Made by a program: the position numbers and the translations under genes
In this document: positions 4,462-64,000 of the stretch, in pieces
Layout: every line of letters starts with the position of its first letter
Numbering within the stretch: the first letter of the stretch is position 1
Assembly: GCA_017513085.1 (NCBI GenBank)
Contig: JAFWDK010000008.1
Span: 9,000 to 72,999 of the forward strand
Length of the DNA: 64,000 bases
Reading direction: 5' to 3'
DNA from: Clostridiales bacterium
GTDB lineage: Bacteria > Bacillota > Clostridia > Saccharofermentanales > Saccharofermentanaceae
Notes under the pieces: generated by a model
Seen by the model: only the letters and a program-made list of their open reading frames with translations
Told to the model about the DNA's origin: nothing
The model's database searches: none

Positions 4462-4472
4462 AACCAATCTCC

Positions 4473-7237: not shown

Positions 7238-7301
7238 AAACAAACCCTCCGTTCAATTGTTTCTAACTGTGATTATAACAAACCCTAAGAAAAATGAAGC
7301 A

Positions 7302-7688: not shown

Positions 7689-7703
7689 ATGTCCCCCTTC
7701 GGA

Positions 7704-8336: not shown

Positions 8337-8491
8337 GGCTTTTTCACCTCACAAAAGAATAGCTGCGGACATCTCCTATAGAAACATCCACAGCTATCAT
8401 TTTAAAGAGACAATGTTACAACTTCTAAACAGTCATGTAGCAATTCCGTTCCCTTTTGAATTCAGGCGGAAAAACAGGCATGTAAGAAGTA

Positions 8492-9325: not shown

Positions 9326-9432
9326 ATTCGTACCCTCCCCAAAAAATCTATGAATTGACTTGTTTAACAAGACTCGATTTATTATATCATGTTTAGAGAT
9401 TTATTTAACAATTTTTATTGAAAGGAAAAAAT

Positions 9433-10779
9433 ATGCAGAACGACTTATCCTCCGGCAAACCATCATCTGTGCTCTGGCGCTTCTGTCTTCCTCTTTTTGC
9501 CAGCATGCTTTTTCAGCAGATGTACAGCATAGCAGATAGCCTGATTGCCGGCGGACTGATCGGAGAAGATGCTTTGGCTGCAGTCGGAAACAGTTATGAG
9601 ATCACATTCATCTATCTGGCCTTTGCTTTTGGCGCCAACATCGGCTGTTCCGTAATCGTTTCCAGGTTATTCGGTGCCGGACGCCATGAACAGATGAAGA
9701 CGGCCGTCTATACTTCTATTCTTCTGGTCATCGTAATGTGTGTGTTTCTCATGTCTATGGGTTTTATCGGGAACTCCGTTCTTCTCCAACTGATTCGCAC
9801 ACCGAAAGACATCTTCGCGGACTCCCGGAATTATCTTCTGATCTATACGGCAAGTCTTCCCTTCATGTTTTTCTATAATTTGTCCACCGGCATTTTCTCG
9901 GGGATCGGAGATTCCCGCACGCCCTTTCTCTTTCTCGCCATATCCTCAACGGCAAACGTGATCCTGGACTACGTATTTGTGAAATTCCTGCACCTCGGTG
10001 TCCCCGGGATAGCTTGGGCAACCTTGATCTGTCAGGGGATAAGTTGCATCTTATCCATGACCGTCGTATTTCATACACTCCAAAGGATCAAATGCGAGCA
10101 TAAACCAGCGCTTTTCTCGGCGCCCCTTCTTAAACAGATCCTGGCCATCGCCATACCGAGCATATTCCAGCAGAGCTTCATTTCAGTCGGCAACATTATT
10201 CTGCAGCGCATCATCAACGCATTCGGAACCGCTGTCATGGCCGGCTATTCCGCATCGATCAAGCTCAACAACCTTATGGTCTCTTCTTTTACTACCCTTG
10301 GAAATGGTATTTCAAACTACACCTCGCAGAATATCGGTGCCCAAAAACCGGAACGCATCCCGGAAGGACACCGCGTCGGCATACACCTGGAATGGCTGCT
10401 CTGCCTGCCGTTCTTGCTTTTGTATCTGGTCTTCGGGAAATATCTTCTCCTGCCTTTCATGGAAAACCCGACCGGAGAAGCCATCCGGACAGGCATTATG
10501 TTTCTTCGGATCGTGTCACCGTTTTATTTCGTCGCCGAAATCAAGCTTGTATCCGATGGCGTTTTGCGCGGTTCCAATCACCTGAAAGAATTCATGATCG
10601 CCACATTTACAGACCTGATCCTTCGCGTCGTGCTTTCCTTCGCGCTCTCGAAAACAAACCTCGGCGCTAACGGAATCTGGTGCTCATGGCCGATCGGATG
10701 GACCGTCGGAACGATCCTCTCCTACTTCTTCTACAAAAGCACTGTCAAAAAACTTATGTCTTCTCCTCAGAAGGAATGA
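9433..10779 (+). CDS. MATE-family efflux transporter
   Basis: 448 aa, polytopic. PSSVLWRFCLPLFASMLFQQMYSIADSLIAG is a typical MATE N-terminal motif. The first ATG in the ORF is 9433; the track start at 9418 is a TTG. Confidence 0.85.
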   Translation: MQNDLSSGKPSSVLWRFCLPLFASMLFQQMYSIADSLIAGGLIGEDALAAVGNSYEITFIYLAFAFGANIGCSVIVSRLFGAGRHEQMKTAVYTSILLVIVMCVFLMSMGFIGNSVLLQLIRTPKDIFADSRNYLLIYTASLPFMFFYNLSTGIFSGIGDSRTPFLFLAISSTANVILDYVFVKFLHLGVPGIAWATLICQGISCILSMTVVFHTLQRIKCEHKPALFSAPLLKQILAIAIPSIFQQSFISVGNIILQRIINAFGTAVMAGYSASIKLNNLMVSSFTTLGNGISNYTSQNIGAQKPERIPEGHRVGIHLEWLLCLPFLLLYLVFGKYLLLPFMENPTGEAIRTGIMFLRIVSPFYFVAEIKLVSDGVLRGSNHLKEFMIATFTDLILRVVLSFALSKTNLGANGIWCSWPIGWTVGTILSYFFYKSTVKKLMSSPQKE

Positions 10780-13700: not shown

Positions 13701-13939
13701 ACCAGATTTGTGGAAGGAATGTAAGAGAGATTCAGTCCGAGTCCCGAAGATGCAATACCATTTCTGTTTTGAGAAACCGAGACTTTCGGATAATCGGATC
13801 CCATACGGAATAATCCTAAGCTGACAAAAAGGAAAGACGAAATCAAAAGAAAAATAACGGAAACCGTAACCGCCGTAACAAACGGCCGTTTATGGACGCG
13901 TTCTTTTCGTGTAAACAGATTACGGATCCGACTGAACAT
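10754..13939 (-). CDS. Membrane-anchored 1061-aa multidomain protein of unknown function (beta-propeller-like and CBM-like segments)
   Basis: It has an N-terminal TM anchor (VTAVTVSVIFLLISSFLFVSLGLF). BNR/Ycf48-like degenerate repeats are present (SSSGGRLWSEL, TTSNGTVFRAL). One segment resembles CBM4/9 (WEVFGEDS..LWLKQGNLTGGRVMVWL..ELYCDGVRLERE). The start overlaps the stop of the upstream CPBP gene (TAATG). Confidence 0.6.
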   Translation of the reverse strand: MFSRIRNLFTRKERVHKRPFVTAVTVSVIFLLISSFLFVSLGLFRMGSDYPKVSVSQNRNGIASSGLGLNLSYIPSTNLVWDASFENNYVEDVFSVAEAEGNSVFLHHSSSKIEKILQSYHKSGKLRIMAYDEDGRMNQILDAGVVDYSKNQLGIWKPMESEISRAEEVKKICSNDEYSAAIMANGDMITYIHTSTQFAIESPDENDPFVDSFSFGKRDYAVTRHGRFFSSSGGRLWSELGGNAEPNEDTDIRALTVIGQTVIACGGQGKVLVHEGNRVIEPKTGEESSFSTAVSDGKRALLCAENGTVLTTSNGTVFRALGQDELSCESEDSWILSSFDNGKITLLDAKGQMAIGSFDEEAQKWSFTRYTDSLEKNYSPKQLVCFSNGDVWMLTFGGYIYSYSFVENKWERLNDERNSEISAMGITSDENLLFVRKGTLYTSSLFTKVTIDREIGDALIQNGDVCYLTVAVPSMNQEGMSAWEVFGEDSVVQNAQNAPKTTGERSLHLFSSNPDVEKAHFVSQVISRDEVSPMKDKAFYHVRLWLKQGNLTGGRVMVWLSGLSESIGSTFTEVSSSWREYSFTFAWPSGYVPSEESQIRLNIGFYGSGELYCDGVRLEREGFSDSEIEPQLVKLLENNQPEYIRLDNLGFGKLGSTIQSNLLLNGNERLNIVGEHGVSGTGVISLESTLRLVKQVNANPWLVIDSAFSKEDSDVLLSYLCGSITEPYGKVRVDNGTAVPWARQFDRILIEVTDSNGLFETDMERGSYVDYVISLIRNSKYYVDIKDKIVLIDGMQYVGGTMNSQADYHASTLHISNDAANKEIQNGDLSSLLDSQYQDYQDAIPRIPASYIQETKGEWVSDLSVSIITRQVYDNEVITVEQPLTAANIARCMLEDLGEHTAFVTVDLPVSRLDGDADEDFFFARDDDRLQNRYTTSANMETAIHTVGVLHSISKGYRVDTNWTVPLSKTNEEGYQVELLSYAFTSNGNTYLIVVNPTPEQQQFLIEADVPVRDIEVFRYSANCKSIGLASTGNILRLNERRYTLQAGQICIAIIPSEEKT

Positions 13940-14784
13940 TACTGTTCTCCTTTACTTTCTACAGGCACTGTCATTTTCGATTTCTTATCCTGTTTCTTCT
14001 TGAACCGGATAAGCAGGATAACCATGATGATAAAAATCGGGATCGCCGCATACTCCACAACTTCCAGAATATACTGGATCACTTCTGAAGGATTGAACAC
14101 TTCGTAGATCCCGCTTCCGACAAAATTAAAAAGCATATGCGTCGCGATAGACATGACCAGATTCTTCGAGACATAATACACGACGGCCAGTACGATTCCG
14201 CATAAGAACGCATAGCCGATCTGGATCACCTGGCCATGCATGACGCCAAAACAAAAACCGCTCACAAGAATAGCCGGCACCGGGTGGCTTACCTGAAGCA
14301 TCCCTTGGAAAACCACGCCACGGAAGATCATCTCTTCCAGCACAGGGATCAGGAGACAACTCGAAAGAAGATTCAGAGCAACCGCCAGAGTTGAAGAAGA
14401 CGTCACTTCCATCATCTCATTATATTCACGCATGGATCGTTCAATGTACGGCGTATGGATATTATTGATGGCTGTAAAATACAATGCCGATATGCCCAGC
14501 ATCGCCAGCGCGGCAAAAACCGCCAACAACCAATCTTCCGACTTGCCTTTCGAGTACGGGATCTGCCCGAAACCATATTTTCTGTAGGCGCGGAACCATA
14601 AAAGACAAAGGATGATGCCGACTATACCTTCGAGAGTATAGATCGCATAGTCATACTTCATCACATCTTCTCCGGCAAAAGCACGCACCGTCTCAAGCGA
14701 GATCGATATAAGAAGATAGTAAGCAATCATGCAGGCTAACGGAACTACGACATACTGAATGATGACCCGGCCGACTTTGCTCAT
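13939..14784 (-). CDS. CPBP-family (CAAX) intramembrane metalloprotease
   Basis: Polytopic, with motifs EEMIFRGVVFQ, FGVMHG and THMLFNF. There is an ATGA overlap with the upstream DUF1292 gene. Confidence 0.85.
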   Translation of the reverse strand: MSKVGRVIIQYVVVPLACMIAYYLLISISLETVRAFAGEDVMKYDYAIYTLEGIVGIILCLLWFRAYRKYGFGQIPYSKGKSEDWLLAVFAALAMLGISALYFTAINNIHTPYIERSMREYNEMMEVTSSSTLAVALNLLSSCLLIPVLEEMIFRGVVFQGMLQVSHPVPAILVSGFCFGVMHGQVIQIGYAFLCGIVLAVVYYVSKNLVMSIATHMLFNFVGSGIYEVFNPSEVIQYILEVVEYAAIPIFIIMVILLIRFKKKQDKKSKMTVPVESKGEQ

Positions 14785-23357: not shown

Positions 23358-23433
23358 TGGTGCCCAGAGTCGGAATCGAACCAACGACACGGGGATTTTC
23401 AGTCCCCTGCTCTACCGACTGAGCTATCTGGGC
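23358..23433 (-). tRNA. tRNA-Phe (anticodon GAA), CCA encoded
   Basis: The reverse complement reads GCCCAGATAGCTCAGTCGGTAGAGCAGGGGACTGAAAATCCCCGTGTCGTTGGTTCGATTCCGACTCTGGGCACCA. It has a 7-bp acceptor stem, anticodon loop CTGAAAA and a GTTCGATTC T-loop. Confidence 0.95.
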
Positions 23434-23467
23434 AAATGATAATCGGTCCAAAATGGACCGATTATCT

Positions 23468-23544
23468 TGGCGACGCAGAAGGGGCTCGAACCCTCGACCT
23501 CCAGCGTGACAGGCTGGCATTCTAACCAACTGAACTACTGCGCC
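23468..23544 (-). tRNA. tRNA-Asp (anticodon GTC), CCA encoded
   Basis: The reverse complement reads GGCGCAGTAGTTCAGTTGGTTAGAATGCCAGCCTGTCACGCTGGAGGTCGAGGGTTCGAGCCCCTTCTGCGTCGCCA. The anticodon loop is CTGTCAC. Confidence 0.95.
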
Positions 23545-23548
23545 GTAA

Positions 23549-23624
23549 TGGTGGAAGATACAGGGCTCGAACCTGTGACCCTCTGCTTGTAAGGCAGATG
23601 CTCTCCCAGCTGAGCTAATCTTCC
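23549..23624 (-). tRNA. tRNA-Val (anticodon TAC), CCA encoded
   Basis: The reverse complement reads GGAAGATTAGCTCAGCTGGGAGAGCATCTGCCTTACAAGCAGAGGGTCACAGGTTCGAGCCCTGTATCTTCCACCA. The anticodon loop is CTTACAA. Confidence 0.95.
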
Positions 23625-53243: not shown

Positions 53244-54107
53244 ATGACTTTCAACATCGGTACGATCCTGCTTTGTATCCTCGGTCTGGGGTTCCTGACC
53301 GGAATCATTCTGCTCGTCTATTCCTATCTTGAAGCCGGAAACCTCAAGGTCGACATCCGGGATATCGATGCGTACCGATCGTCCGATCAAAAGTCCGGAG
53401 AAACCGTGACAATAGGATTTTTCTCCGATTCACACGGTAAATTCTGTCATTTCAAACCGGAGCGAGTCTCCCGGGAATTTCTCGAACACAACTGCGACCT
53501 GGTGCTTTTCGGCGGAGATTGCTGTCTGCATCATCATGTCGACCCGACGGATCTTACCATGTTGCGGGAGGTCGCATCCGATCTGAAAACAAAGGATATC
53601 GATCTTTTTGCCATCTACGGCAACCATGACGGACAGATGAAAGATGAATATTTCGAAGAGATGGGCGTGATCCTTCTCAAGGATTCCTGGCGGGAGATCA
53701 CCATCGGCAACGCCCGGTTTGCGCTTTGCGGACTTTACGACAGCGGGCGGGAAAACCGTGTCTGGCCGAAGATCCCGAAAGATTTCTCAGACTATCCGGG
53801 ATTCCGCCTTCTTCTTGTCCATAACCCTGATTATATCTATTCTCTTCCGGACTATACCGGAAAGAAAAACCTTCCTTACGATTATCAGCTTTCCGGTCAT
53901 CTGCACGGCGGTCAGGTCCATCTTCCGTTCACGCTGGAATATAAACTTCTGCGCTATGACCGCATCGCCCTGGAAGAAAATATCCTCGGAGGCGCTTTTA
54001 CCTTCCGAGGACTTTCCGGTTTTATCTCCAAGGGTGTCGGTTGCGGCGCTCTTCCCATCCGTTTCCGCGCACGCCCGGAGATCCATATTTTACGTTTTCA
54101 TTTTTAA
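53244..54107 (+). CDS. Membrane-anchored metallophosphoesterase (YkuE-like)
   Basis: N-terminal TM, then FFSDSHG, GGDC, YGNHD and SGHLHGGQ, which are calcineurin-like phosphoesterase motifs. Confidence 0.85.
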   Translation: MTFNIGTILLCILGLGFLTGIILLVYSYLEAGNLKVDIRDIDAYRSSDQKSGETVTIGFFSDSHGKFCHFKPERVSREFLEHNCDLVLFGGDCCLHHHVDPTDLTMLREVASDLKTKDIDLFAIYGNHDGQMKDEYFEEMGVILLKDSWREITIGNARFALCGLYDSGRENRVWPKIPKDFSDYPGFRLLLVHNPDYIYSLPDYTGKKNLPYDYQLSGHLHGGQVHLPFTLEYKLLRYDRIALEENILGGAFTFRGLSGFISKGVGCGALPIRFRARPEIHILRFHF

Positions 54108-54116: not shown

Positions 54117-55781
54117 TTAGCGATTCTCTAAGAAGTGTGGAGTGAAGCAGCAGAAAAGTGTACCCAGACCAATGTTTACCACGGTTCCGATCACCAACGC
54201 CGGAAGCATCACATGAAGAACAATACCGACGATCACCGCAATAATGGCAGGGAACATTCCGATGTACAGGAATACCATCTGAACCACTGCTTTGATCGAA
54301 CTGCCCGTCTTTTGCGGCAGAGAAACGTTGATAAATGTACCCACTGCCGTGCCGAAGAAGCTGACGGATATGATGAACAGCATCCAGCCTAATACAACCA
54401 GAGGATTCTCCATCAGGAGAACGGTTACCACGATCAACGGAAGCAGAAGGTCGATTGCACAAACCACAAGTCCTCCGAACATGGAATACCACATTTTCAT
54501 AAACGAAGAATCCGGAACGAGTACGAAAAACTCTCTTGATGTATCTTCTTCCAGAGGGTTGCCCAATGTCCGGTAAAATACCAGCACGATCAAAGCTATC
54601 GCAGGTACCACGATCGGGCTTGCGCCATCAATGTCACGTCCCAGCCAGGCCGCTACGCCGGCTACAAGTGTAAATACGATCGATGTCTTCGAAAGCACTT
54701 TGAAAATACCGAAGCGCAGGCGGTTATAGATCGGTTTGAAGAAGAATACGCTGGCGCCAAAACCATGCGAGAAACCTTCACGATTCAGCTTATCGCTTCT
54801 GTCTTTCTGTCTGGTCATAACACCACCATTGGCAGATCTCTTGGCATTGTCGAGCAATTCCGCTTTCTTCTCTGCCGCGCCAATAGCATCTTCGTAAAAA
54901 TCTGCTTTCATCTTCCAGATAAAGACGACCAGGCATGCGCAACCAAGGATAAACAAAGCCAGGAAGATCAAGGATCTTGCCACAGAACCGGTGAGCGCAT
55001 AGTAGCAGAAACCACGGATCCAGCCCCAGAAAGGAACAAAGAATGTGTTACGGTTTCCGAAGAAACGGCATGCGCAAGTAAGAAGATCTTTCTCGGAACC
55101 GAGCGTTCTATAAAGGAAGAAAGCACCTGCCAGTACAGCTAAAAACACGATCAGATATGTCGTCATACTCTTGCCCGGACGCTTCCTGTTCGAAGAAATC
55201 GTATAGAATGCTACCTGGATCAGAGTACCCAGGACCGAAAGGAGCGAATACGCGAAGATGATCGAAAGGCTTCCGTAAATACTGAATCCTGCCCCTGAGG
55301 TAAGTTGAGGCATATAGAACAGCATACCTATGGAACATAACACCATCAGGCCCATCTGTCCCAAAAGACGGAAAAGCATGACTGACTGGGGTTTGATCGG
55401 TGCGGCAAATAACATCGGAACATCACCGGGCTGGAAAATATTGCCGGCCTTTTGTGAATTGGCGATATTCGATACCAAAACCAGGATCGCAGCCAAGGCA
55501 ATGATAGTATCTGTAAACAGGTACTTATCGATCCCTCTCTTTTCGAGGAAATTCTGAGAGTCTTCAGAATCGGCTTCTTCATCCTTCTCTCCCAGACCAA
55601 TAGTAACCGAGATTTGTTCTTTCTCGTCGGGATCATCGGAATCCGGTATAAGGCTACCGATCACAAATCCGATTAATCCACCCACGATCATTAGCACAAG
55701 AAACAAGGCAACCCATGTCTTCAAAAGTTTTTTGAACGTATTAATGAAAGAATGGGCAAAGTAGTACAGGAAGGGTCTCAT
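54117..55781 (-). CDS. Putative ABC exporter permease (large polytopic, ABC_export-like)
   Basis: 554 aa with at least 10 TM. The start overlaps the stop of the upstream ABC ATPase by 1 nt. Confidence 0.7.
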   Translation of the reverse strand: MRPFLYYFAHSFINTFKKLLKTWVALFLVLMIVGGLIGFVIGSLIPDSDDPDEKEQISVTIGLGEKDEEADSEDSQNFLEKRGIDKYLFTDTIIALAAILVLVSNIANSQKAGNIFQPGDVPMLFAAPIKPQSVMLFRLLGQMGLMVLCSIGMLFYMPQLTSGAGFSIYGSLSIIFAYSLLSVLGTLIQVAFYTISSNRKRPGKSMTTYLIVFLAVLAGAFFLYRTLGSEKDLLTCACRFFGNRNTFFVPFWGWIRGFCYYALTGSVARSLIFLALFILGCACLVVFIWKMKADFYEDAIGAAEKKAELLDNAKRSANGGVMTRQKDRSDKLNREGFSHGFGASVFFFKPIYNRLRFGIFKVLSKTSIVFTLVAGVAAWLGRDIDGASPIVVPAIALIVLVFYRTLGNPLEEDTSREFFVLVPDSSFMKMWYSMFGGLVVCAIDLLLPLIVVTVLLMENPLVVLGWMLFIISVSFFGTAVGTFINVSLPQKTGSSIKAVVQMVFLYIGMFPAIIAVIVGIVLHVMLPALVIGTVVNIGLGTLFCCFTPHFLENR

Positions 55782-56554
55782 TATGCGTTCTCCCCCTTCA
55801 CCTGCTCATTCGAATTGTCGGATCCTTCGGCTTCGGAATGGCTGACGTCATCTTTTTCTATGCCTTCAGTAACCTCAAAGAAGATGTCTTCCAACGTTTT
55901 TCCCGCGCCTTCGATTTCCGGACGGGTGATATTCGCGCGGACAGTTCCCTTCTGCATAATGATCGTGCGGTCCCAGAGCATGTCCACACTGTCGATGATA
56001 TGCGTACTGATCAGCATGGTCTTTCCCGCCTGACGCATCTCCTCGATGTAGTTCTTCAGTTCTTTTATAGCATGAGGGTCCAAACCGAGAAGCGGCTCAT
56101 CCATGAGGATAATATCAGGATCCGGCAGAAGGCCGATGCAAAGGTTCAATTTCTGCTGCATGCCTTTGGAAAGCTCATCGCCGAACTTCTTTTTCTTATC
56201 TGCCAGTTCAAAACGATCCAGAAGCATCTGAATACGGTCTTTATAGTTTGTCATCTTATATGCACGGGCAATGAATTCCATATGCTCGATCACGGTAAGG
56301 TTAGGATAAAGTGACGGCATCTCCGGGATATACCCCAGAACTCTTCTGGCCTGGACCGTCTTATTCGGCATACCATTGACGGTAATGCTGCCCTGGTATT
56401 TCAAAAAACCGATGATCGACTTGATGATCGTACTCTTGCCCGCTCCGTTCGGTCCCAAAAGAACCGTCAGGCTGCCCGGCTGCAAGGTAAACGACACATT
56501 ATCACAGGCAAGTGTCTTTCCGAACTTTTTAGTCACTCCATTAATCTCTAACAT
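55781..56554 (-). CDS. ABC transporter ATP-binding protein
   Basis: GPNGAGKST, LSKGMQQKLNL and IILMDEPLLGLD. Confidence 0.9.
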   Translation of the reverse strand: MLEINGVTKKFGKTLACDNVSFTLQPGSLTVLLGPNGAGKSTIIKSIIGFLKYQGSITVNGMPNKTVQARRVLGYIPEMPSLYPNLTVIEHMEFIARAYKMTNYKDRIQMLLDRFELADKKKKFGDELSKGMQQKLNLCIGLLPDPDIILMDEPLLGLDPHAIKELKNYIEEMRQAGKTMLISTHIIDSVDMLWDRTIIMQKGTVRANITRPEIEGAGKTLEDIFFEVTEGIEKDDVSHSEAEGSDNSNEQVKGENA

Positions 56555-56793
56555 AGAAAATCCTCACTTCTTCTTTTTTTCTCTCCAAGCGCTTATTTAA
56601 CGATACCATTGTAAAAATGAAAGGTAAATCCATAGTCTAGATAATCTAAAGAAATAGTAAAGTATGTTTTTTCGCTATTTTCACGGCTTCTATATATCCT
56701 TATAATGATTGAGTTATTCGTATTCTAGTGTTAAGATTGTCTACGGCGATTTTATATATAAGGAAAAAGAACTAGTTAGAACAGGAAAAATAT

Positions 56794-59601
56794 ATGTCTT
56801 TTGCTTCGATTTTATATCAATTACTTCTGGCTCCTCTCGAGCTGATCTATGAGCTGGTCTATAACTTTGCCAGCAATATTCTTCAGGATTACGGCGCTGC
56901 GATCATTCCGCTGAGCCTTGCCGTCAACTTCCTGCTTCTGCCTTTTTACCAGCGTGCTGACGCGATCCAGAAAGCAGAGAAAGATATGCAGAACAAACTG
57001 GCAGCCGGCGTCGCCCACATCAAGAAGACCTTCAAGGGCGATGAGCGCTTCATGATGCTCAACACCTACTACCGACAGAATCACTATAAGCCGATCTATT
57101 CCCTTCGAAGCTCGATCCCGCTGCTTTTGCAGGTACCGTTCTTCATTTCGGCGTACAATTTTCTTTCGAATCTTCCGGATCTGCAGGGCACAAGATTTGC
57201 CTGCTTTTCCGATCTGAGTTCTCCGGATGCGCTGATCAGGATCGCCGGGATCTCCATCAACCTTTTGCCTATCCTCATGACGCTCATCAACGTCATCTCC
57301 AGTGAGATCTATATGAAAGGACACCCTTTCAAGGATAAGATCCAGCTTCACGGCATGGCCCTGATCTTCCTGGTCCTTCTCTACGATTCGCCGTCCGGTC
57401 TTGTTTTATACTGGACCCTGAATAATGTCTTCTCCCTTGTGAAGAATATCGTAAACGGAAGCAAACGCCCGAAACTGTGCGTCAGCATCTTCATGTCGCT
57501 GGTCGGTTTCCTTGCCTTCTTCTACGCATTCTTCAGCTACAAGGGACCGAACAATTATAAGCTCGCAATCATTCTGATCGGACTTTTGTTCCACCTGCCG
57601 TCGATCATCAACCTGATCCGCATGAAGATGCCGGCCAAGACCAAAGAGGCAAAAGAATCCTCCGAGCTCTCAGCCGAACAAAAGAAAGCAGACAACCGTC
57701 TTTTCCTGTATGGCGCTTCATTCCTGACCATCATGACAGGACTTCTCATCCCAGCAGCGGTCATCCGTTCCTCTCCGGCAGAATTCGTACTGGTCACGGA
57801 TTTCCATTCTCCGCTCCGCTACGTATTCCTGTCATTTCTCATGGCCGCCGGTCTCTTCCTGATCTGGTGCGGTCTCTTCTACTTCCTTTCCAAACCGAAG
57901 TCCAGAAGAGTTTTCAGCGTCGTTCTCCTGATCATGTCCATTGCCGGCACAGTCAACTACATGCTTTTTGCCAAACACCTGACATCCCTTACCTCCGATC
58001 TGAAATATGAGGGTGGCATGTCCTTTTCGACCAAAGAGATCATCATCAATCTGGCAGCCGTGGCGGCCATCTGTGTAATTCTTCCGATCCTCTGGAAGAA
58101 GAAGCACCAGATCGTGTCGAAAGTGTTCCCGCTTATCGTGATCGCTGTCTTTGGCATGTCCATCTACAACATGGTCGGCATCCAGCAGTCCATCAACGAG
58201 GTACGCGAAGTCGTAGAAAACCAGTCCACCGAGCTCGCCACTTTCCAGTTCAGCAAAAAAGGCAAGAACGTCGTCGTCTTTATGCTCGACCGTGCAGTCA
58301 GCTGCTACGTCCCGTATTTCTTCCAGGAAAACCCGGACCTGGCGAAGCAGTTCGACGGATTCACCTGGTATCCGAACACACTCTCTTTCGGAGTAAGAAC
58401 CAACACCGCGGCGCCGGCGCTTTTCGGCGGGTATGATTACACACCGGACCAGATCAATGCCAGAGCAGACGAGCTTCTCGAAAACAAACACAACGAAGCG
58501 CTGAAAGTTATGCCGGTGCTTTTTGATCAGGCCGGATATCAAGTCACCGTATGCGACCCGCCTTATGCAGGCTACGGCTGGATCCCGGATCTTTCGATCT
58601 ACGATGAATACCCGGACATCCGTGCTTTCAATACAGAGATCGGCCAGTTCCGTGACCAGACGGAGAGTAATATTCTGAGGAAACAAGCCTGGAAGCGTAA
58701 CTTCTTCTGTTACAGTTTCATGAAGGTCATGCCGCTTCCTGTCCAGTACGTTATTTACCAGGACGGCGCCTACTTCAGTCCGGGAAGCACCAATAAAGTT
58801 CTGATGCAGTCCGAGGCGATCACAACTTCCAAGCCGTCCGTCGGCGTATGGAATCCTTTCATGAACGCCTACTCCGCGCTGAGCTCGCTTTCTGACATGA
58901 CGAAGATTTCCGAAGGTGACGAGAATAATTTCCTCATGATGCAGAATGGTACCGCCCACAACGTCATGATGCTTCAGGAACCCGGATATGTCCCGGCAAA
59001 AGAAGTCGACAATACGGAGTTCGAATCTACGCATCAGGACCGTTTCACACTTGACGGCAAGACGCTCGAGATGGATAACGCCTATAAGATCGTGCACTAC
59101 CAGTGCAACATGGCCGCACTCCTTCAGATGGGCAAATGGATGGACTACCTGCGCGAACAAGGCGTGTACGACAACACCAGGATCATCATCGTAGCCGATC
59201 ACGGCTGGACACTCGGTCATTTCGACAACATGATCTTCGGAACCGATCTGGCGGATACTTCCTATTACAATCCGGAAGACGCCATGGGTTACAACCCGCT
59301 CCTGCTCGTCAAAGACTTCGGCAGCACCGGTCCGGTCAAGACCGACTACACTTTCATGACCAACGCGGACACCCCGTCGCTGGCGATGATGGATCTTCTG
59401 GATTCACCGATCAACCCGTTTACCGGCCGTGCGATCAATCGTCCGGAAGAAAAACAGAAAGACTCGATGCTGGTTATGTATACCGATAACTGGAGCGTCG
59501 AATTCAATAACGGAAACACCTTCTCCGGATGCGTATGGTTCAACTGCAGAAACCAGAACATCTTCGAGAAAGAAAACTGGTCCAGAGCCCAGGATCAATA
59601 A
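56794..59601 (+). CDS. Fusion protein: YidC/Oxa1-like insertase domain + extra TM bundle + extracytoplasmic sulfatase/alkaline-phosphatase-superfamily (LtaS/PEtN-transferase-like) domain
   Basis: Residues 1-215 carry 60KD_IMP motifs (LLPFYQRADAIQKAEKDMQ..MLNTYYRQNHYKP..PLLLQVPFFISAYNFL..GLVLYWTLNNVFSLVKN). Residues ~220-470 hold about 7 more TM helices. Residues ~480-935 carry VVVFMLDRAVS, GVRTNTAAPALFGG and IIIVADHGW, which are metal-site and nucleophile-type motifs of the sulfatase superfamily. Confidence 0.75.
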   Translation: MSFASILYQLLLAPLELIYELVYNFASNILQDYGAAIIPLSLAVNFLLLPFYQRADAIQKAEKDMQNKLAAGVAHIKKTFKGDERFMMLNTYYRQNHYKPIYSLRSSIPLLLQVPFFISAYNFLSNLPDLQGTRFACFSDLSSPDALIRIAGISINLLPILMTLINVISSEIYMKGHPFKDKIQLHGMALIFLVLLYDSPSGLVLYWTLNNVFSLVKNIVNGSKRPKLCVSIFMSLVGFLAFFYAFFSYKGPNNYKLAIILIGLLFHLPSIINLIRMKMPAKTKEAKESSELSAEQKKADNRLFLYGASFLTIMTGLLIPAAVIRSSPAEFVLVTDFHSPLRYVFLSFLMAAGLFLIWCGLFYFLSKPKSRRVFSVVLLIMSIAGTVNYMLFAKHLTSLTSDLKYEGGMSFSTKEIIINLAAVAAICVILPILWKKKHQIVSKVFPLIVIAVFGMSIYNMVGIQQSINEVREVVENQSTELATFQFSKKGKNVVVFMLDRAVSCYVPYFFQENPDLAKQFDGFTWYPNTLSFGVRTNTAAPALFGGYDYTPDQINARADELLENKHNEALKVMPVLFDQAGYQVTVCDPPYAGYGWIPDLSIYDEYPDIRAFNTEIGQFRDQTESNILRKQAWKRNFFCYSFMKVMPLPVQYVIYQDGAYFSPGSTNKVLMQSEAITTSKPSVGVWNPFMNAYSALSSLSDMTKISEGDENNFLMMQNGTAHNVMMLQEPGYVPAKEVDNTEFESTHQDRFTLDGKTLEMDNAYKIVHYQCNMAALLQMGKWMDYLREQGVYDNTRIIIVADHGWTLGHFDNMIFGTDLADTSYYNPEDAMGYNPLLLVKDFGSTGPVKTDYTFMTNADTPSLAMMDLLDSPINPFTGRAINRPEEKQKDSMLVMYTDNWSVEFNNGNTFSGCVWFNCRNQNIFEKENWSRAQDQ

Positions 59602-59613: not shown

Positions 59614-60906
59614 ATGTTTACACTTCAACAGATCAGTCAGCTCGTATGCCTCACTCCCCGCGTGAGACTGTACATCGACCCGGGAACGGGCAGCATGCTC
59701 TTCGCCGTACTCATCGGACTTCTCGGCGTAGGCCGCTTCCTCTTCAAAGGCCTCTGGGTCAAGCTCCGTTTCCTTTTCAGCGGCGGCAAGAAGACCGACG
59801 CTGACAACGACGTGATCCCGCTCGCCGTCTTCTCGGACGACAAGCGTTACTGGTCCGTCTTTGAGCCGATCCTGCGGGAACTCGACCAGCGCGGATTCGA
59901 CGTCGTTTATATGACCGCATCCGAAGACGACCCTGGCCTCAAGACCGACCTGTCTCACGTAAAAGCCGAGTGCATCGGTCCGGGAAACCACGCATTTGCC
60001 AAACTGAACTTCACCAAAGCCACCATGCTGCTCTCGACCACACCGGGACTGGATGTCTACCAGTGGAAGCGTTCCAAAGATGTAAAATACTACATCCACA
60101 TTCCGCACTCCCCGGCCGAGCTCACCACTTACCGCATGTTCGGCACAGACTACTATGACGCCATGATGCTTTCCGGCCAGTACCAGATCGACGATGCACG
60201 CGAGCTCGAAAAGCTCCGCGATCTTCCGGCAAAAGAACTCACCCTCGTGGGTATTCCTTTCCTCGACGAGAAGGTTAAGCGTCTGGAAGCATTCAAAGCG
60301 CAAAATAAGGACGATGACACCAAACATGAGCGTACGGTCCTTCTCGCTCCTTCCTGGGGCGAGAGTGCCATTCTCAAGCGTTACGGCGGGGATATGATCC
60401 GCCGCCTCCTCGACACCGGCTACCATATCATCATCCGCCCGCACCCGCAGTCCTTCACTTCCGAAAAAGATTTGATGGACAAGCTGATGCAGGAATTCCC
60501 GGAAAGCGACAGACTGGAATGGAACCGAGACAATGATAACTTCGATGTTCTCAACCGCTCTGACATCATGATCTCCGACTTCTCCGGCGTCATCTTTGAA
60601 TTCGCACTCGTATTCGACAAACCAGTCATCTGCGCAGACACCGAATTTGACTCCTCACCTTACGACGCCTGGTGGCTCGGCAGACTCCCCTGGGGCCAGA
60701 CCGCGATTCCACGCATCGGCAAGATCCTGACCAAAGACAACTTCTCCGAGATCAAAAACATGATCGACACCTGCATCGAAGACAAATCCTTCGAAGAAAG
60801 CCGCCACGCCGTCCGCGACGAAACCTGGACCCACCGCGGCGAAGGCGCCAGACTCGCCGCCGACTACATCACGGAAAAGTACAAAGAGTTAAAAACAACC
60901 AAGTAA
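59614..60906 (+). CDS. CDP-glycerol glycerophosphotransferase (TagB/TagF) family protein
   Basis: LAPSWGESAILKRYG..IIIRPHPQS..DIMISDFSGVIFEFALVFDKPVI is the TagF-family C-terminal catalytic pattern. ATG 59614 lies 6 nt after AGGAGGG, whereas the ATG at 59608 abuts the RBS. Confidence 0.8.
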   Translation: MFTLQQISQLVCLTPRVRLYIDPGTGSMLFAVLIGLLGVGRFLFKGLWVKLRFLFSGGKKTDADNDVIPLAVFSDDKRYWSVFEPILRELDQRGFDVVYMTASEDDPGLKTDLSHVKAECIGPGNHAFAKLNFTKATMLLSTTPGLDVYQWKRSKDVKYYIHIPHSPAELTTYRMFGTDYYDAMMLSGQYQIDDARELEKLRDLPAKELTLVGIPFLDEKVKRLEAFKAQNKDDDTKHERTVLLAPSWGESAILKRYGGDMIRRLLDTGYHIIIRPHPQSFTSEKDLMDKLMQEFPESDRLEWNRDNDNFDVLNRSDIMISDFSGVIFEFALVFDKPVICADTEFDSSPYDAWWLGRLPWGQTAIPRIGKILTKDNFSEIKNMIDTCIEDKSFEESRHAVRDETWTHRGEGARLAADYITEKYKELKTTK

Positions 60907-60933
60907 AACACAAAAACTTATCCCGCAAACAAA

Positions 60934-60978
60934 AACCTTGCTTCCCCGCAAAATCGCAGAGAAACAAGGTTATTTTTT
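60934..60978 (+). terminator. Intrinsic terminator after the TagF-like gene
   Basis: AACCTTGCTTC..GAAACAAGGTT stem (one mismatch) followed by ATTTTTTG. Confidence 0.55.
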
Positions 60979-60980
60979 GC

Positions 60981-61049
60981 CCCGGACATTGTTTGTGATT
61001 TCAAATTTCGCCGCGATTACGCAGGGCAAAGCCCGAGTACCAGCGGCGA
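60981..61049. repeat. Intergenic structured repeat, copy 1
   Basis: CCCGGACATTGTTTGTGATTTCAAATTTCGCCGCGATTACGCAGGGCAAAGCCCGAGTACCAGCGGCGA. It matches copy 2 except for a 4-nt insertion and one substitution. Confidence 0.85.
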
Positions 61050-61115
61050 TTTACTTCCTTTACACCGGAAACTCACCCACCAAATGAAATCCTCGCAGGA
61101 ACTAACTATTACAGT

Positions 61116-61198
61116 CCCGGACATTGTGATTTCAAATTTCGCCGCGATTACGCAGGGCGAAGCCCGAGTACCAGCGGCGAAATTTGCAAATCACAATG
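61116..61198. repeat. Intergenic structured repeat, copy 2, with full-length inverted-repeat arms
   Basis: CCCGGACATTGTGATTTCAAATTTCGCCGC..GCGGCGAAATTTGCAAATCACAATG. The ~24-nt arms have one bulge and enclose a nested GGGC-GAA-GCCC hairpin. The right arm contains the stop codon (61191-61193) of the decarboxylase gene. Confidence 0.85.
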
Positions 61199-62312
61199 TT
61201 TCTAAATACTTCATAAAATTCTCTTTGTTTTCCAGTGCTGTCGTGGTCGGGCGGCCAAGATCTTCGCGCGCTCCGATGGAACACATAACTTCGATCAGAC
61301 AGAGCTCATCCATCTCCTTGGCCACTGCCAGTTCACGATCCAGCGCGAAGAAATCCTCGACACGGATCGCATACGGATATCCGCACGCCTTCGCCACAGA
61401 AACCAGATCAACATCGCTCATTACTGTCGGCATACCACCCACCGTTTCATGCGCACCGTTATTGATCACGATATGCACGAGATTCTTCGGTTTGTTCGCT
61501 CCGATCACCGCCATGGAACCCATATGCATCAGAACCGCACCGTCACCATCGATACACCAGATCTTCTGGTTCGGCTTATTGATCGCAACTCCCAAAGCAA
61601 TGGAAGAACTGTGACCCATGGAACCGACTGTCAGGAAATCATACTTATGGCTCTGTCCGTTTGCCACTCTTGTCTCAAAAAGCTCTCGCGATGCTTTTCC
61701 TGTAGTGGAGATGATCGGGTCCTCTTCACTGACCGCCACGATATGCTGGATGATCTCTTCACGGACCATTGTATTCTCGTTACTATAAACCACCTTCTCG
61801 TCATACGAAAGCGCGCCTTTACGGATAACAAAAGCGACATCTTTGCCCGAAGAAAGGATCTCACGGAATTCATCCATCTTTGCCTTCACTTCATCGTCTG
61901 TCGTATCCTTGCCGATCGCAAAATTCGCAATACCCATATCGTCAAGAAGCTTCACGGTCACTTCACCCTGATAGATATGCTGTGGCTCATCGTGGATGCC
62001 GGGCTCGCCTCTCCAACCGATAATAAACACGGTCGGGATCGCATACACCTTATCATTCAGAAGACTGGCCACCGGATTGATGATATTGCCTTCACCGGAA
62101 TTCTGCATATAGACGACAGGCACTTTTCCGGTAGCAAGATGGTAACCTGCCGCCAAAGCCGTACAGTTGCCCTCATTTGCCGCGATCACATGATGATGCG
62201 CATCAATGCCGTAAGTATGCATAAGGTAATTGCAAAGTGCTTTTAATTGGGAATCCGGAACTCCTGTATAAAAATCCGAACCAATGATCTGAACCAGTTT
62301 TTCAACTTTCAT
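61191..62312 (-). CDS. aepY: Phosphonopyruvate decarboxylase
   Basis: FYTGVPDSQLKALCNYL..AANEGNCTALAAGYHLATGK..WCIDGDGAVLMHMGSMAVIG is a TPP enzyme of the Ppd family. It lies directly downstream of PEP mutase. Confidence 0.88.
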   Translation of the reverse strand: MKVEKLVQIIGSDFYTGVPDSQLKALCNYLMHTYGIDAHHHVIAANEGNCTALAAGYHLATGKVPVVYMQNSGEGNIINPVASLLNDKVYAIPTVFIIGWRGEPGIHDEPQHIYQGEVTVKLLDDMGIANFAIGKDTTDDEVKAKMDEFREILSSGKDVAFVIRKGALSYDEKVVYSNENTMVREEIIQHIVAVSEEDPIISTTGKASRELFETRVANGQSHKYDFLTVGSMGHSSSIALGVAINKPNQKIWCIDGDGAVLMHMGSMAVIGANKPKNLVHIVINNGAHETVGGMPTVMSDVDLVSVAKACGYPYAIRVEDFFALDRELAVAKEMDELCLIEVMCSIGAREDLGRPTTTALENKENFMKYLETL

Positions 62313-62330: not shown

Positions 62331-63626
62331 TTAGATTTCGTCGATCAAAGTAATGATCTCTTTAATGGACATCAGACGGTCATCAACCTCTTTTGCCCGG
62401 TGATACTTAAGAATATCTTCCGCGGTCTTCTGCATGGCCGGAAAAGCACTTCTGGTGAGCTGGTTGGCGTAGATCACGATGTTCACGCCGTGTGCGGCCA
62501 GTTCGTCCTCGGTAATGGTATTAAAACTTGAAGGCACGACCACGATCGGGGTATGCTTGTTTTCTTCTCTGAACTTATCGCAGAACTCCAGGATCTCATC
62601 CGGCTCCTTCTTTCTGCTGTGGATCATGATTCCGTCCGCTCCGGCCTCGACAAAAGCTCTTGCCCGTGTCAGTGCGTCGTCCATGCCTTGTTCGAGGATC
62701 AGGCTTTCGATTCGTGCAATGATCATGAAATCATCCGTCAGCTGTGCTTTCTTACCTGCACGGATCTTCGCGGAAAACTCTTCAATGCTCGCCTGCGTCT
62801 GCTTCACTTCCGTTCCGAAAAGCGAGTTCTTCTTGAGTCCCGTCTTATCCTCGATAATGACAGCGGACACACCCAGTCTTTCCAGACTTCTCACCGTATA
62901 TACGAAATGCTCGGTCAATCCGCCTGTATCACCATCGAAGATGATCGGTTTTGTCGTTACCTCGGTAATATCCTCGATCGTGCGGAAACGGCTGGTCATA
63001 TCCACCAGCTCAATATCCGGTTTTCCTTTGGCCGTACTGTCGCAAAGGGAGCTGATCCACATCGCATCGAACTGATCGAGTTTCCCTTCATGCTCCACGA
63101 CCGTCTTTTCCACGATCAGACCGGTAAGACCGCTATGCGCTTCCATCGTCTTTACGATCGGTGTCATCTCGATCAGCTGGCGCAATCTCTTTCTGCGGTA
63201 TTCCGGCATACCCAGTTTCTCGCGAAGCTGCAGATCGATCTTTCTTACATTCTCGTTGAATGTATACGGAATATCCACCAATTCTCCGCCGTACTCGGCA
63301 AGCAGGTTCTCCACATGTGCCCGGATCGTGCTTTCCGGTCCCTCTTTCCAGTTATCGCCATGGACGACATAATCCGGATGGATCAAGGCGATCACATCGT
63401 CATAATGCATCTTCTCCTGGATCACGACCTTCTCCACCCCCGGGAGCGAACGGTACAGTTTCACACGCTCCTCCTGCGGGATCGTCGGGAACTTGTTATA
63501 ACGGATCAAGACCTGATCGGAAAGACATCCTACGATCACGTTTCCCAACTTCTTTGCTTCATTGATAATGTTCAGATGTCCCTCATGGATCACATCCGTG
63601 CAAAAGCATGTATAGACAGTTTTCAT
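62331..63626 (-). CDS. aepX: Fusion: HxGH-type cytidylyltransferase domain + phosphoenolpyruvate mutase
   Basis: The N-terminus VYTCFCTDVIHEGHLNIINEAKKLG is the cytidylyltransferase HxGH motif. The C-terminal domain carries the PepM signature IIEDKTGLKKNS (EDKxxxxxNS) and an isocitrate-lyase/PEP-mutase fold. Confidence 0.88.
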   Translation of the reverse strand: MKTVYTCFCTDVIHEGHLNIINEAKKLGNVIVGCLSDQVLIRYNKFPTIPQEERVKLYRSLPGVEKVVIQEKMHYDDVIALIHPDYVVHGDNWKEGPESTIRAHVENLLAEYGGELVDIPYTFNENVRKIDLQLREKLGMPEYRRKRLRQLIEMTPIVKTMEAHSGLTGLIVEKTVVEHEGKLDQFDAMWISSLCDSTAKGKPDIELVDMTSRFRTIEDITEVTTKPIIFDGDTGGLTEHFVYTVRSLERLGVSAVIIEDKTGLKKNSLFGTEVKQTQASIEEFSAKIRAGKKAQLTDDFMIIARIESLILEQGMDDALTRARAFVEAGADGIMIHSRKKEPDEILEFCDKFREENKHTPIVVVPSSFNTITEDELAAHGVNIVIYANQLTRSAFPAMQKTAEDILKYHRAKEVDDRLMSIKEIITLIDEI

Positions 63627-63703
63627 GTCTTATATCTCCTTCTTTATCGCATTTGTCGCAATAGACACATATCTCACGCGTGCCGGATCCGGCACACTAC
63701 CGC

Positions 63704-64000
63704 TCAGGAACGGTAGCCCTTCTCCTCGGAATAATGGACCGGAACCGAAACACCAGACGCTTGCAGAGCTTCTTGAAACACAACAAAGAAGTCTTCAATA
63801 TCTTTCTCATCGATCGCGCCCAGTGCGCAAAGACGGAAAGTATTGGTCGTGGAGATCTTACCGGGATAGATGGTAAATCCACGTTCATAACAATAATCAT
63901 GCACCTTCTCGAAACTCCAGTTCGGATCATCCGGATAGATTGCCGAAGAAACCAGACCTGCGCGCCATTCCGGCTTGATCACCTGACGGAAGCCAAGCTC
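63704..64000 (-). CDS. phnW: 2-aminoethylphosphonate-pyruvate transaminase, C-terminal part (N-terminus beyond window)
   Basis: The frame is open to base 64000 (..ELGFRQVIKPEWRAGLVSSAIYPDDPNWSFEKVHDYCYERGFTIYPGKISTTNTFRLCALGAID). This is the class V aminotransferase AEPT C-terminal pattern. It lies upstream of pepM and ppd. Confidence 0.8.
   Translation of the reverse strand, partial: ELGFRQVIKPEWRAGLVSSAIYPDDPNWSFEKVHDYCYERGFTIYPGKISTTNTFRLCALGAIDEKDIEDFFVVFQEALQASGVSVPVHYSEEKGYRS

Follow-up and report, generated by a model that had tools for sequence, protein, structure and literature searches.

A clostridial fusion of a YidC-like domain with an LtaS/EptA-type phosphotransferase module and its TagF-like partner: probably a LicD-independent route for surface head groups

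The stretch of DNA studied here, in the following called the window, comprises 64,000 nucleotides (nt) from a Clostridiales bacterium (contig JAFWDK010000008.1, positions 9,000 to 72,999 of the forward strand). Near its end, on the plus strand at 56794..59601, lies an open reading frame (ORF) of 935 codons which runs from ATG to TAA with an unbroken frame. According to its translation, its homologs and a structural model, the product combines a YidC-like domain, a hairpin of two transmembrane (TM) helices, a bundle of five further TM helices and an alkaline-phosphatase-superfamily domain. A gene for a TagF-like phosphotransferase of 430 aa (59614..60906) follows on the same strand, and convergent to this pair, on the minus strand, are genes assigned to the synthesis of 2-aminoethylphosphonate (AEP). 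We regard the fusion protein as a membrane phosphotransferase of the LtaS/EptA type to which a YidC domain has been added and whose obligate partner is the TagF-like protein, and the two proteins probably represent an undescribed, LicD-independent route for surface head groups.

The fusion gene is not restricted to the window. An identical protein is encoded by an independent metagenome contig (L001), and because the intergenic lengths differ between the two, they represent different strains or assemblies. Comparison of the stretches at window 60907-61190 and 63627-63703 reveals that in L001 the gap between the TagF-like gene and the phosphonopyruvate decarboxylase (Ppd) gene is about 131 nt longer, and that between the phosphoenolpyruvate (PEP) mutase and the transaminase gene about 74 nt shorter. 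A protein search returned more than 120 full-length homologs with 49-87% identity. With the non-YidC part (aa 231-935) as query, 925 relatives at E<1e-30 (as 50%-identity clusters) were found in a database of 1.8 billion cluster representatives, and the best 150 of these were inspected. In nearly all of these 150 the match starts at about residue 190-290 of proteins of 860-940 aa, and a stand-alone C-terminal module lacking YidC is not found among them. Short matches of 580-740 aa were considered as YidC-less forms and rejected, as they begin in the middle of the YidC part or without a start methionine and are fragments. A scan of one genome per species gave at least 597 candidate loci, and the best 79 of them are all full length, spanning residues 1 to about 930 of the fusion protein at 43-57% identity. 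The carriers belong mostly to the Oscillospiraceae, Lachnospiraceae, Ruminococcaceae and other rumen or gut Clostridia, and include the cultured strains Acetatifactor aquisgranensis DSM 110981, Butyrivibrio sp. INlla21 and Lachnospiraceae bacterium XBD2001. The fusion architecture is a large family in Clostridia and not a rare one. A sequence-only reading of this DNA, which preceded the present analysis, knew of no description of such an architecture. This stands in so far as we found no publication on the YidC/phosphotransferase fusion architecture or on its pairing with a TagF-like protein in the open-access full-text literature; the proteins themselves, however, are common in the databases, where NCBI labels them "membrane protein insertase YidC". 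Hundreds of entries carrying this name are probably mis-described.

The N-terminal part of the protein (aa 1-225; 56794..57468, plus strand) had been taken in the same reading for a YidC/Oxa1 domain, and the profile searches leave it so. Pfam 60KD_IMP (PF02096) matches aa 33-220 over 160 of the 163 positions of the profile (E=4e-23; 82.6 bits, cut-off 35), and NCBIfam TIGR03592 scores 90.6 bits against a cut-off of 84.3. PF02096 is matched by all 47 of 47 homologs as well. Direct sequence matches to solved YidC structures in the PDB reach down to E~1e-6, and by sequence this part aligns end to end with the solved cores of the E. coli, B. halodurans and Thermotoga YidC proteins. In the AlphaFold2 (AF2) monomer model of the fusion protein (mean predicted local distance difference test score, pLDDT, 85.5; predicted template modelling score, pTM, 0.75) an amphipathic N-terminal helix at aa 3-30 precedes a YidC core at aa 37-222, with helices at 37-79 (TM1 into CH1), 83-95 (CH2), 100-125, 157-173, 179-196 and 201-222. 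A five-TM core (TM1 and TM2-TM5) with a cytoplasmic coiled-coil hairpin between its first two helices is present in this model, and the hairpin carries many residues that are invariant in the family (K78, F80, G82, D83, R85, M87, Y93). The motifs quoted earlier are all found in the 935-aa translation, namely GLVLYWTLNNVFS at aa 202-214 in the last core helix, FMLDRAVS at 496-503, RTNTAAP at 534-540 and VADHGW at 800-805.

One residue of the YidC-like groove requires special attention. In the HMMER alignment the query segment 'aVNflllP' stands opposite 'iVRgimyP' of YidC, so that Asn45 (56926..56928, plus strand) faces Arg366 of E. coli YidC. The positive groove residue of the YidC family, which according to Chen et al. 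2022 is strictly conserved across all YidC homologs (PMC8920935), is absent here, and Asn45 is invariant both among the 47 homologs and in a more diverse set of 12. The same study found R366 of E. coli to be dispensable if residue 517 is aromatic or hydrophilic (PMC8920935), and in the alignment the residue equivalent to 517 is an invariant tryptophan of the fusion family, Trp207. Judged from the aligned sequences, Asn45 is a clear departure from the YidC signature, from which a loss of insertase activity does not follow.

Compared with YidC, SpoIIIJ and Oxa1, the domain thus shows scores above the curated cut-offs, the five-TM core with its coiled-coil hairpin, the PxGLxLYW helix and several polar groove positions. 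It differs from them by the invariant asparagine in place of the groove arginine and by the lack of a C-terminal ribosome-binding tail, instead of which 710 further residues follow. In addition, the gene is situated in a surface-decoration operon, is often present in tandem or in several copies per genome, and has a patchy distribution. These features hint indirectly that it does not behave as a housekeeping gene. A second YidC is not encoded within the 64-kb window.

Behind the YidC core, at aa 226-475, seven more TM helices follow according to both a Kyte-Doolittle scan and the AF2 model, which agrees with the number of about seven estimated before; as hydrophobic helices they span aa 228-458. 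They fall into two parts. The linker region (aa 226-300; 57469..57693, plus strand) consists of a two-helix hairpin at aa 226-278 and a K/E-rich cytoplasmic segment at aa 279-300, where the pLDDT drops to 56-57 (aa 281-300); hairpin and linker form the least conserved stretch of the protein, with a consensus mostly of 'x'. The second part is the five-TM bundle (aa 301-475; 57694..58218, plus strand), with helices at 301-326, 341-365, 368-395, 413-436 and 438-475, of which the last continues as a stalk directly into the catalytic domain. Its first outer loop is conserved as SSPxEFV...HSP (S327, E330, F331, P340), and invariant residues are concentrated in this loop, in the YidC core and in the catalytic domain. 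Foldseek aligns the protein with full-length PbgA over 726 columns and with MCR-1 over 659 columns, longer than the alignments to soluble domains. The assumption that a YidC fold takes the position of the usual five-TM anchor has to be given up: the model contains the YidC core, then the hairpin and linker, and then a five-TM bundle of its own. On the basis of this model the last 635 residues are built like an ordinary LtaS, EptA/MCR-1 or PbgA, with YidC added in front.

The topology was derived from hydropathy and the positive-inside rule. There are 12 TM helices in total, K/R-rich loops lie on alternate sides, and the N-terminal tail is free of K and R. Both termini are therefore predicted to be outside, which is the usual orientation of YidC, and the catalytic domain would be extracytoplasmic, as the sequence-only reading had expected for its sulfatase-type domain.

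This domain (aa 476-935; 58219..59598, plus strand) is difficult to recognize by sequence comparison. Pfam Sulfatase (PF00884) reaches 19 bits in the window protein and remains below its cut-off of 25, although 43 of 47 homologs match it at E<=1e-3 (best 3e-10) and the precomputed Pfam column lists it for many of them. Searching the PDB with the C-terminal 475 aa gave marginal sequence matches (E 0.04-0.6) and a profile search little better ones; in NCBIfam the alkaline-phosphatase part has no match. Because direct and profile sequence searches are marginal, the fold assignment rests on the AF2 model, in which an α/β catalytic fold extends over about aa 484-935 with a pLDDT mostly >85, together with Foldseek. 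The latter finds PbgA/YejM, MCR-1, LtaS/LtaP, phosphonate monoester hydrolases and sulfatases with a probability of 1.0 and E-values from 5e-8 to 1e-5. Assignment to the alkaline-phosphatase superfamily, with conserved metal-ligand and nucleophile motifs, is in line with what had been read from the letters.

Five residues of this domain do not vary in either homolog set, the one of 47 or the more diverse one of 12, both copies of tandem genes included. Asp499 (58288..58290), a putative metal ligand, ends the first beta-strand (NVVVFMLD; strand 492-498 in the model), and Thr536 (58399..58401), the putative catalytic nucleophile, is the first residue of helix 536-545 (RTNTAAP). His722 (58957..58959) follows strand 712-718 and is a candidate substrate or metal ligand, while Asp802-His803 (59197..59202), a putative pair of metal ligands, lies behind strand 795-800 (IIIVADHGW); all four sites are on the plus strand. 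In sequence searches the IIIVADHGW stretch is the one matched to sulfatases, phosphonate monoester hydrolase and LtaS. By position we equate T536 with the nucleophilic threonine, and D499 and D802-H803 with the metal ligands, that LtaS and EptA/MCR-1 possess. An acid ligand, a threonine at the start of a helix and an Asp-His pair form, by position and analogy, a complete catalytic set, and its invariance would favour an active enzyme over a PbgA-like binding protein.

LtaS/EptA-type enzymes transfer a head group from a lipid donor via a covalent Thr intermediate, and this chemistry is also proposed for the fusion. The fusion shares with LtaS, GacH and EptA/MCR-1 the five-TM anchor followed by an extracytoplasmic alkaline-phosphatase-superfamily domain, as well as the acid ligand after strand 1, the helix-start Thr, the Asp-His pair and the Foldseek probability of 1.0. 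In contrast to them it is marginal by sequence, its anchor is preceded by the YidC core and the two-TM hairpin, and it is coupled to a cytoplasmic TagF-like protein and to the synthesis of a CMP-activated head group (CMP, cytidine monophosphate), a coupling which LtaS, GacH and EptA/MCR-1 do not need because they use bulk phosphatidylglycerol (PG) or phosphatidylethanolamine (PE). As far as the model allows, fold, anchor, topology and catalytic residues place the fusion among the LtaS/EptA-type proteins, as a very distant member by sequence.

The TagF-like gene (59614..60906, plus strand) is translationally coupled to the fusion gene. Only 12 nt separate the stop codon of the fusion from the ATG at 59614 (TAA-GGAGG-7 nt-ATG), so that the tight coupling and the ribosome-binding site seen in the sequence-only reading are real. 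Pfam PF04464 matches the protein with 45.4 bits against 22.1, while no NCBIfam equivalog does. In its AF2 model (pLDDT 85.7) the top Foldseek match is TagF from S. epidermidis (3l7k, E=1e-10), with 8qoy, a TagF-like capsule polymerase, in fourth place. The N-terminus (aa 1-58; window 59614-59790) consists of the conserved RLYIDPGTGSMLFA, one TM helix and then a K/R-rich segment. Because of this arrangement, with a short N-tail before the single helix, and because CDP and CMP donors (CDP, cytidine diphosphate) are found in the cytoplasm, the catalytic domain should face the cytoplasm. The N-terminus is almost invariant across the family and surpasses most of the catalytic domain in conservation. 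With its short, Asp-containing tail, its TM helix and the K/R residues behind, it presumably resembles substrates that depend on YidC only, of the Pf3-coat type, and it may bind to the YidC-like groove of the partner protein.

To describe the gene context across the family, degenerate back-translated DNA motifs were counted by exact match over the fetched loci (86; 92 for the LicD motif), and because of the exact matching these counts are lower bounds. In 73 of 86 loci the TagF-like motif (back-translated YIDPGTGSM or DVYQWKRSK) directly abuts the fusion gene and shares its strand, either downstream or upstream; YIDPGTGSM alone is exact in 70 of 86, and several of the 13 loci without a TagF-like motif are truncated contigs. 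In the reverse direction, three of three TagF-like homologs from an independent search adjoin a YidC-sulfatase fusion of 917-924 aa. The TagF-like proteins are 61-85% identical among the family, and are thus better conserved than the fusion; between AEP-linked and choline-linked loci they share 63-75% identity. A gene of the Rce1-like/CPBP intramembrane-protease family often adjoins the TagF-like gene (locus L028, 9247-9999; L087, 6307-7017; L089, 6264-6902), and in one lineage it is fused to the TagF-like N-terminus (L091, 7001-8623; P0328, 540 aa).

The convergent genes of the window encode Ppd (61191..62312; TIGR03297 459.9 vs 312.5 bits, with the N and C domains of Pfam TPP_enzyme), a cytidylyltransferase-PEP mutase fusion of the PntC-Ppm type (62331..63626; TIGR02320 419.7 vs 319.55, Pfam CTP_transf_like and PEP_mutase) and the 3' end (98 codons) of a 2-aminoethylphosphonate transaminase, which is cut by the window end (63704..64000). 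All three are on the minus strand. The transaminase fragment is identical at 91 of 91 positions to the L001 protein, which scores 461.6 vs 360.8 with TIGR03301, and on this sister contig a gene for a helix-turn-helix (HTH)-nucleotidyltransferase follows the AEP genes. The fusion type of cytidylyltransferase and PEP mutase has been described (PMC8942020, PMC6697681), and PntC enzymes make CMP-AEP (PMC6697681). Ppd, the cytidylyltransferase-PEP mutase and the AEP transaminase together match the signature that has been published for making CMP-AEP destined for cell-surface phosphonates. The AEP genes had been pointed out before as neighbours of the fusion gene. They are indeed close by in the window, but the conserved association is a different one: in the co-occurrence survey a PEP mutase (PepM) motif was found in only 14 of 86 loci, most of them in the clade nearest to the window protein. 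The constant partner of the fusion is the TagF-like gene and not the phosphonate genes.

A choline-kinase motif occurs in 27 of 86 loci. The supply genes around the TagF-like gene are of the CMP-AEP or CDP-choline type rather than the CDP-glycerol type, and of 12 contexts annotated with Pfam, 10 contain a nucleotidyltransferase; the generic nucleotidyltransferase motif AAGxGxR was left unused, as it is noisy and missed NTP_transferases confirmed by Pfam. According to Pfam, A. aquisgranensis harbours in one locus, in this order, an HTH-LicC-LicA fusion, a LicC-like protein, a BCCT transporter, the TagF-like protein and the fusion. LicC, LicA (choline kinase), TagF-like and fusion are found together in three of three loci from metagenomes or metagenome-assembled genomes (MAGs), with an EamA (LicB-type) transporter in two of them and an Rce1-like protein in all three, in one fused to the TagF-like protein. 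Two further loci annotated by Pfam carry other genes in front of the pair: a nucleotidyltransferase-aminotransferase fusion in Lachnospiraceae XBD2001, and an aminotransferase and a cytidylyltransferase-oxidoreductase fusion in a Solobacterium MAG. Compact operons of five or six genes contain the supply genes and the TagF-like/fusion pair alone. LicD has no Pfam match in any annotated context, and the LicD motif PWDDD was found in one of 92 loci, an exact-match scan and by itself a weak test. The conserved unit is TagF-like plus fusion, and the variable unit is a cassette for a CMP-activated, amine-bearing head group.

Relatives without choline or AEP genes were seen at L049 (4202-8735) and L054 (1059-3723). 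One of these cassettes contains a fusion of a nucleotidyltransferase and a class I/II aminotransferase, and close to it are genes for NeuB, for a cytidylyltransferase of the CMP-sugar type and for a radical SAM enzyme; the other has a cytidylyltransferase fused to a GFO/IDH/MocA oxidoreductase, together with an aminotransferase. The products of such cassettes may be further amino-alcohol head groups in CDP-activated form. At L089 (4168-5913), L090 (2143-3888) and L091 (1-2540) the lic/TagF-like/fusion cassette is flanked by serine recombinase genes, which suggests that the cassette is mobile; mobile elements likewise flank licABC in Clostridium immunis (bioRxiv 10.1101/2024.06.12.598703).

Some genomes possess more than one fusion gene. 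A second full-length copy directly behind the TagF-like gene (order fusion, TagF-like, fusion) is present at L002 (14152-16935), L003 (4531-7314) and L062 (14051-16822), and Asn45 and every catalytic residue are kept in both tandem copies. Two separate fusion loci per MAG are found in JAFRQR01 (L004, L009), JAEEIT01 (L018, L021), DFFH01 (L011, L026) and CAJOLL01 (L024, L040). The paralog at L004 is divergent to two large genes of the YfhO family (4285-9800, minus strand) and lies upstream of a gene for a protein of 598 aa (12923-14719). This neighbour was considered as a diverged TagF-like protein and rejected; it is not TagF-like and has no Pfam match.

That the fusion acts together with the TagF-like protein in decorating the surface with a head group supplied in CMP-activated form is, in our opinion, likely. 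For the way in which this happens we favour, with a confidence somewhat short of even, a two-gene module for the LicD-independent installation of zwitterionic phospho- or phosphono- head groups via a lipid relay. Judged by the supply genes the head group would be 2-aminoethylphosphonate at the window locus and phosphocholine in many relatives. The relay would begin in the cytoplasm, where enzymes of neighbouring genes make the CMP-activated head group; the gene content is seen and the chemistry is taken from the protein families. At the window locus PepM, Ppd and AEP transaminase would give AEP and the cytidylyltransferases CMP-AEP, while elsewhere a choline transporter, choline kinase and LicC-like enzyme would lead to CDP-choline. 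In a second step the membrane-anchored, cytoplasm-facing TagF-like protein would take the head group off the CMP donor and attach it to a lipid of the membrane or to a lipid-linked glycan, a step assigned to it because it is the sole CDP-alcohol-type transferase in the compact operons. The use of a CDP-amino compound by a TagF-like enzyme has a precedent in FtaD. The loaded lipid would then reach the outer leaflet through the hydrophilic groove of the YidC-like domain, acting as a dedicated scramblase or flippase; the same groove may simultaneously hold the conserved N-terminal helix of the TagF-like protein and thereby tie both enzymes together. Finally, to judge from fold, topology and invariant residues, the five-TM and alkaline-phosphatase module would take the head group onto Thr536 and pass it to an extracellular acceptor, which might be a teichoic acid, a polysaccharide or a protein.

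The reasoning behind this sequence is as follows. Because the TagF-like protein is inside and the phosphotransferase domain outside, and both would belong to one pathway, an intermediate which crosses the membrane is needed. LtaS, GacH, EptA/MCR-1, OpgB and PptA take their head group from an outer-leaflet phospholipid, and therefore loading of a lipid and transfer in the outer leaflet are proposed. A rare donor made in the inner leaflet needs a flippase, whereas bulk PG or PE does not, which would explain why, among these families, the fusion family alone has a YidC fold. Scrambling of phospholipids in vitro has been observed with purified E. coli YidC (PMC11047089). A lipid relay in which YidC is the translocating or docking element we nevertheless rate as plausible at best, clearly below an even chance. 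Still more tentative, and rather doubtful, is the generalization that in many gut and rumen Firmicutes the Oxa1/YidC fold has been recruited from protein insertion to serve as built-in flippase or scramblase and as loader dock of a LicD-independent head-group relay. The same degree of doubt applies to the range of head groups such a relay might carry (phosphocholine, aminoethylphosphonate and related amino-alcohol phosphates).

Several points weigh against the lipid relay. The lipid intermediate is hypothetical, and the TagF-like protein could work in the manner of LicD and FtaD, with a lipid-linked glycan decorated directly in the cytoplasm, in which case there would be no obvious need for a transferase outside. 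The loss of the groove arginine is, judging by the alignment, compatible with insertase activity, as the invariant Trp207 supplies an aromatic residue at the 517 position. The identity of 63-75% between TagF-like proteins of AEP and choline loci could mean that there is one common donor. In addition, some family members lack an adjacent TagF-like gene, those at L004 and L005 adjoining two YfhO genes, and the TagF-paired locus L006 has no head-group genes within 10 kb.

A lipid-handling groove and a dedicated insertase are the two live functional hypotheses for the YidC-like domain. As an alternative to the relay, the domain may be a true local insertase or assembly chaperone attached to an ordinary LtaS/EptA-type transferase consisting of the five-TM and alkaline-phosphatase module, with no lipid passing through the groove. 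It might insert the seven downstream helices of its own chain or, more plausibly, insert and permanently hold the N-terminal anchor of the TagF-like protein, which would result in a two-enzyme complex across the membrane. The scores above the curated YidC cut-offs and the retained cytoplasmic coiled-coil hairpin with its many invariant residues are consistent with this, as is the extraordinary conservation of the TagF-like N-terminus (YIDPGTGSM), which looks like that of a YidC-only substrate. Moreover, grooves without the arginine still insert proteins if the neighbouring residue is aromatic (PMC8920935), as it is here with Trp207. However, LtaS, EptA, MCR-1 and PbgA are inserted without a private YidC, and the host machinery must in any case first insert the N-terminal YidC domain itself. 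The invariant replacement of an otherwise strictly conserved groove residue points to a changed job, and it would be left unexplained how a cytoplasmic CDP-using enzyme and a transferase outside share a substrate. We consider a pure insertase role rather unlikely, though it is the alternative that survives best.

Another explanation keeps the pathway but dispenses with the relay: the TagF-like protein would decorate a lipid-linked glycan inside, and the fusion would act on the exported polymer, be it as an LtaS-like polymerase or primase on phosphatidylglycerol, as a ligase, or as a trimming or remodelling phosphodiesterase. TagF-family enzymes normally use lipid-linked acceptors, or a glycan in the case of FtaD, and in the Foldseek comparison the catalytic domain is as similar to LtaS/LtaP and to phosphodiesterase-type hydrolases as to phosphoethanolamine transferases. 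Some fusions lacking a TagF-like neighbour adjoin YfhO-type teichoic-acid glycosyltransferase genes, and the high identity of the TagF-like proteins across different head-group contexts would fit a common role. On the other hand, neither the near-obligate adjacency with translational coupling nor the added YidC domain is explained, the compact five- or six-gene operons consist of supply genes and the pair only, and a scavenging hydrolase makes little sense beside de novo synthesis of AEP. This explanation appears unlikely to us.

PbgA is regarded as a lipid- or lipopolysaccharide (LPS)-binding regulator and not as an enzyme. If the C-terminal domain were a non-catalytic lipid-binding or sensing domain of the PbgA/YejM kind, the fusion would be a regulator or a lipid transporter. 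Full-length PbgA, its TM part included, is indeed the top Foldseek match (6xlp, E=5e-8; also 6v8q), accompanied by the YejM periplasmic domains, and the window protein stays under the Pfam Sulfatase threshold. Unlike PbgA/YejM, however, the fusion family keeps the complete catalytic set, across the 47 homologs and the 12 more diverse ones, and MCR-1, LtaS/LtaP and phosphonate monoester hydrolase have Foldseek E-values only about 1-2 orders of magnitude from that of PbgA, which makes a non-catalytic protein very improbable. A frameshift or mis-assembly that joined a yidC to a neighbouring sulfatase-family gene can practically be dismissed. The sequence-only reading had already seen no sign of one and pointed to the continuous frame, and 79 independent genome loci show the same architecture in full length (43-57% identity), next to an identical protein on an independent contig, more than 120 full-length homologs, and non-YidC matches that begin at about residue 190-290 of 860-940-aa proteins.

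Returning to the lipid relay, its logic resembles that of the three-part extracytoplasmic glycosylation systems (GtrB/CsbB, the flippase GtrA/GtcA, and GtrC/YfhO), in which a lipid carrier is loaded inside and flipped before its cargo is transferred outside to a finished polymer. Protein folds and chemistry are entirely different: these systems handle sugars on undecaprenyl phosphate with GT-A and GT-C enzymes, whereas here flipping and transfer would share one polypeptide. With the Lic pathway of S. pneumoniae and H. influenzae (LicA, LicB, LicC, LicD) the operons of the relatives have in common a choline transporter (EamA/LicB-type or BCCT), a choline kinase and a LicC-like nucleotidyltransferase. 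They differ from it as no LicD was found and the TagF-like protein and the YidC fusion stand in its place; the supply arm of the window, moreover, would make AEP and not phosphocholine.

The Pnt clusters with PntC-Ppm fusions possess the same AEP supply genes (Rice et al. 2019, PMC6697681; Li et al. 2022, PMC8942020). As the downstream enzymes, however, these papers name LicD-like phosphotransferases or glycosyltransferases, where the window has the TagF-like/fusion pair. The word YidC is absent from the main texts of both papers, and one of them mentions sulfatases once, in another context. The closest parallel to the TagF-like protein is FtaD of Clostridioides difficile, a TagF-like CDP-N-methylthreonine:N-acetylglucosamine (GlcNAc) phosphotransferase (bioRxiv 10.64898/2026.02.12.704994). 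FtaD has the TagF fold and uses a CDP donor to transfer a small phospho head group which bears an amino function, and for the neighbour of the fusion gene TagF is the best structural match. FtaD, though, modifies a flagellin glycan in the cytoplasm and has no partner outside, while the TagF-like protein of the window possesses a TM anchor that is conserved and has its obligate partner in the membrane.

The enzyme which moves AEP from CMP-AEP to its acceptor, the last step of surface phosphonate tailoring, is poorly defined (PMC6697681). In Clostridium immunis, phosphocholine is placed on a polysaccharide via licABC without licD and drives a metabolic phenotype of the host (bioRxiv 10.1101/2024.06.12.598703). 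With the TagF-like/fusion pair there is now a concrete candidate for the transferase that is missing from licD-less phosphocholine decoration in gut clostridia. The scrambling of lipids by YidC-family insertases has been seen in vitro and its physiological use is not known (PMC11047089), so the arginine-less fusion family offers a natural test case. Should the YidC fold prove to move lipid, this would be categorically new.

Some further features of the window surround the pair. The fusion gene is preceded by an AT-rich spacer of 239 nt in which a consensus scan finds a promoter-like site, TTTTCA-17-TATAAT (56678..56706, plus strand; 10 of 12 positions), a consensus match only. Between the convergent TagF-like and Ppd genes a terminator scan detects a 17-bp hairpin (60934..60971), likely a bidirectional terminator. 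No regulatory RNA from Rfam is located near the fusion locus, and the sole Rfam matches in the window belong to a cluster of three tRNAs (23361-23624, minus strand). Divergent from the fusion gene lies an ABC exporter pair (54117-56554, minus strand; PF16962 permease and ATPase), which is also present on the sister contig and probably does not belong to the conserved module, because it is absent at homologous loci such as L002. A calcineurin-like metallophosphoesterase gene is situated at 53244-54107 (plus strand), near the AEP genes, and in Butyrivibrio sp. INlla21 (L062, 7799-8545, minus strand) such a gene directly adjoins that for the cytidylyltransferase-PEP mutase.

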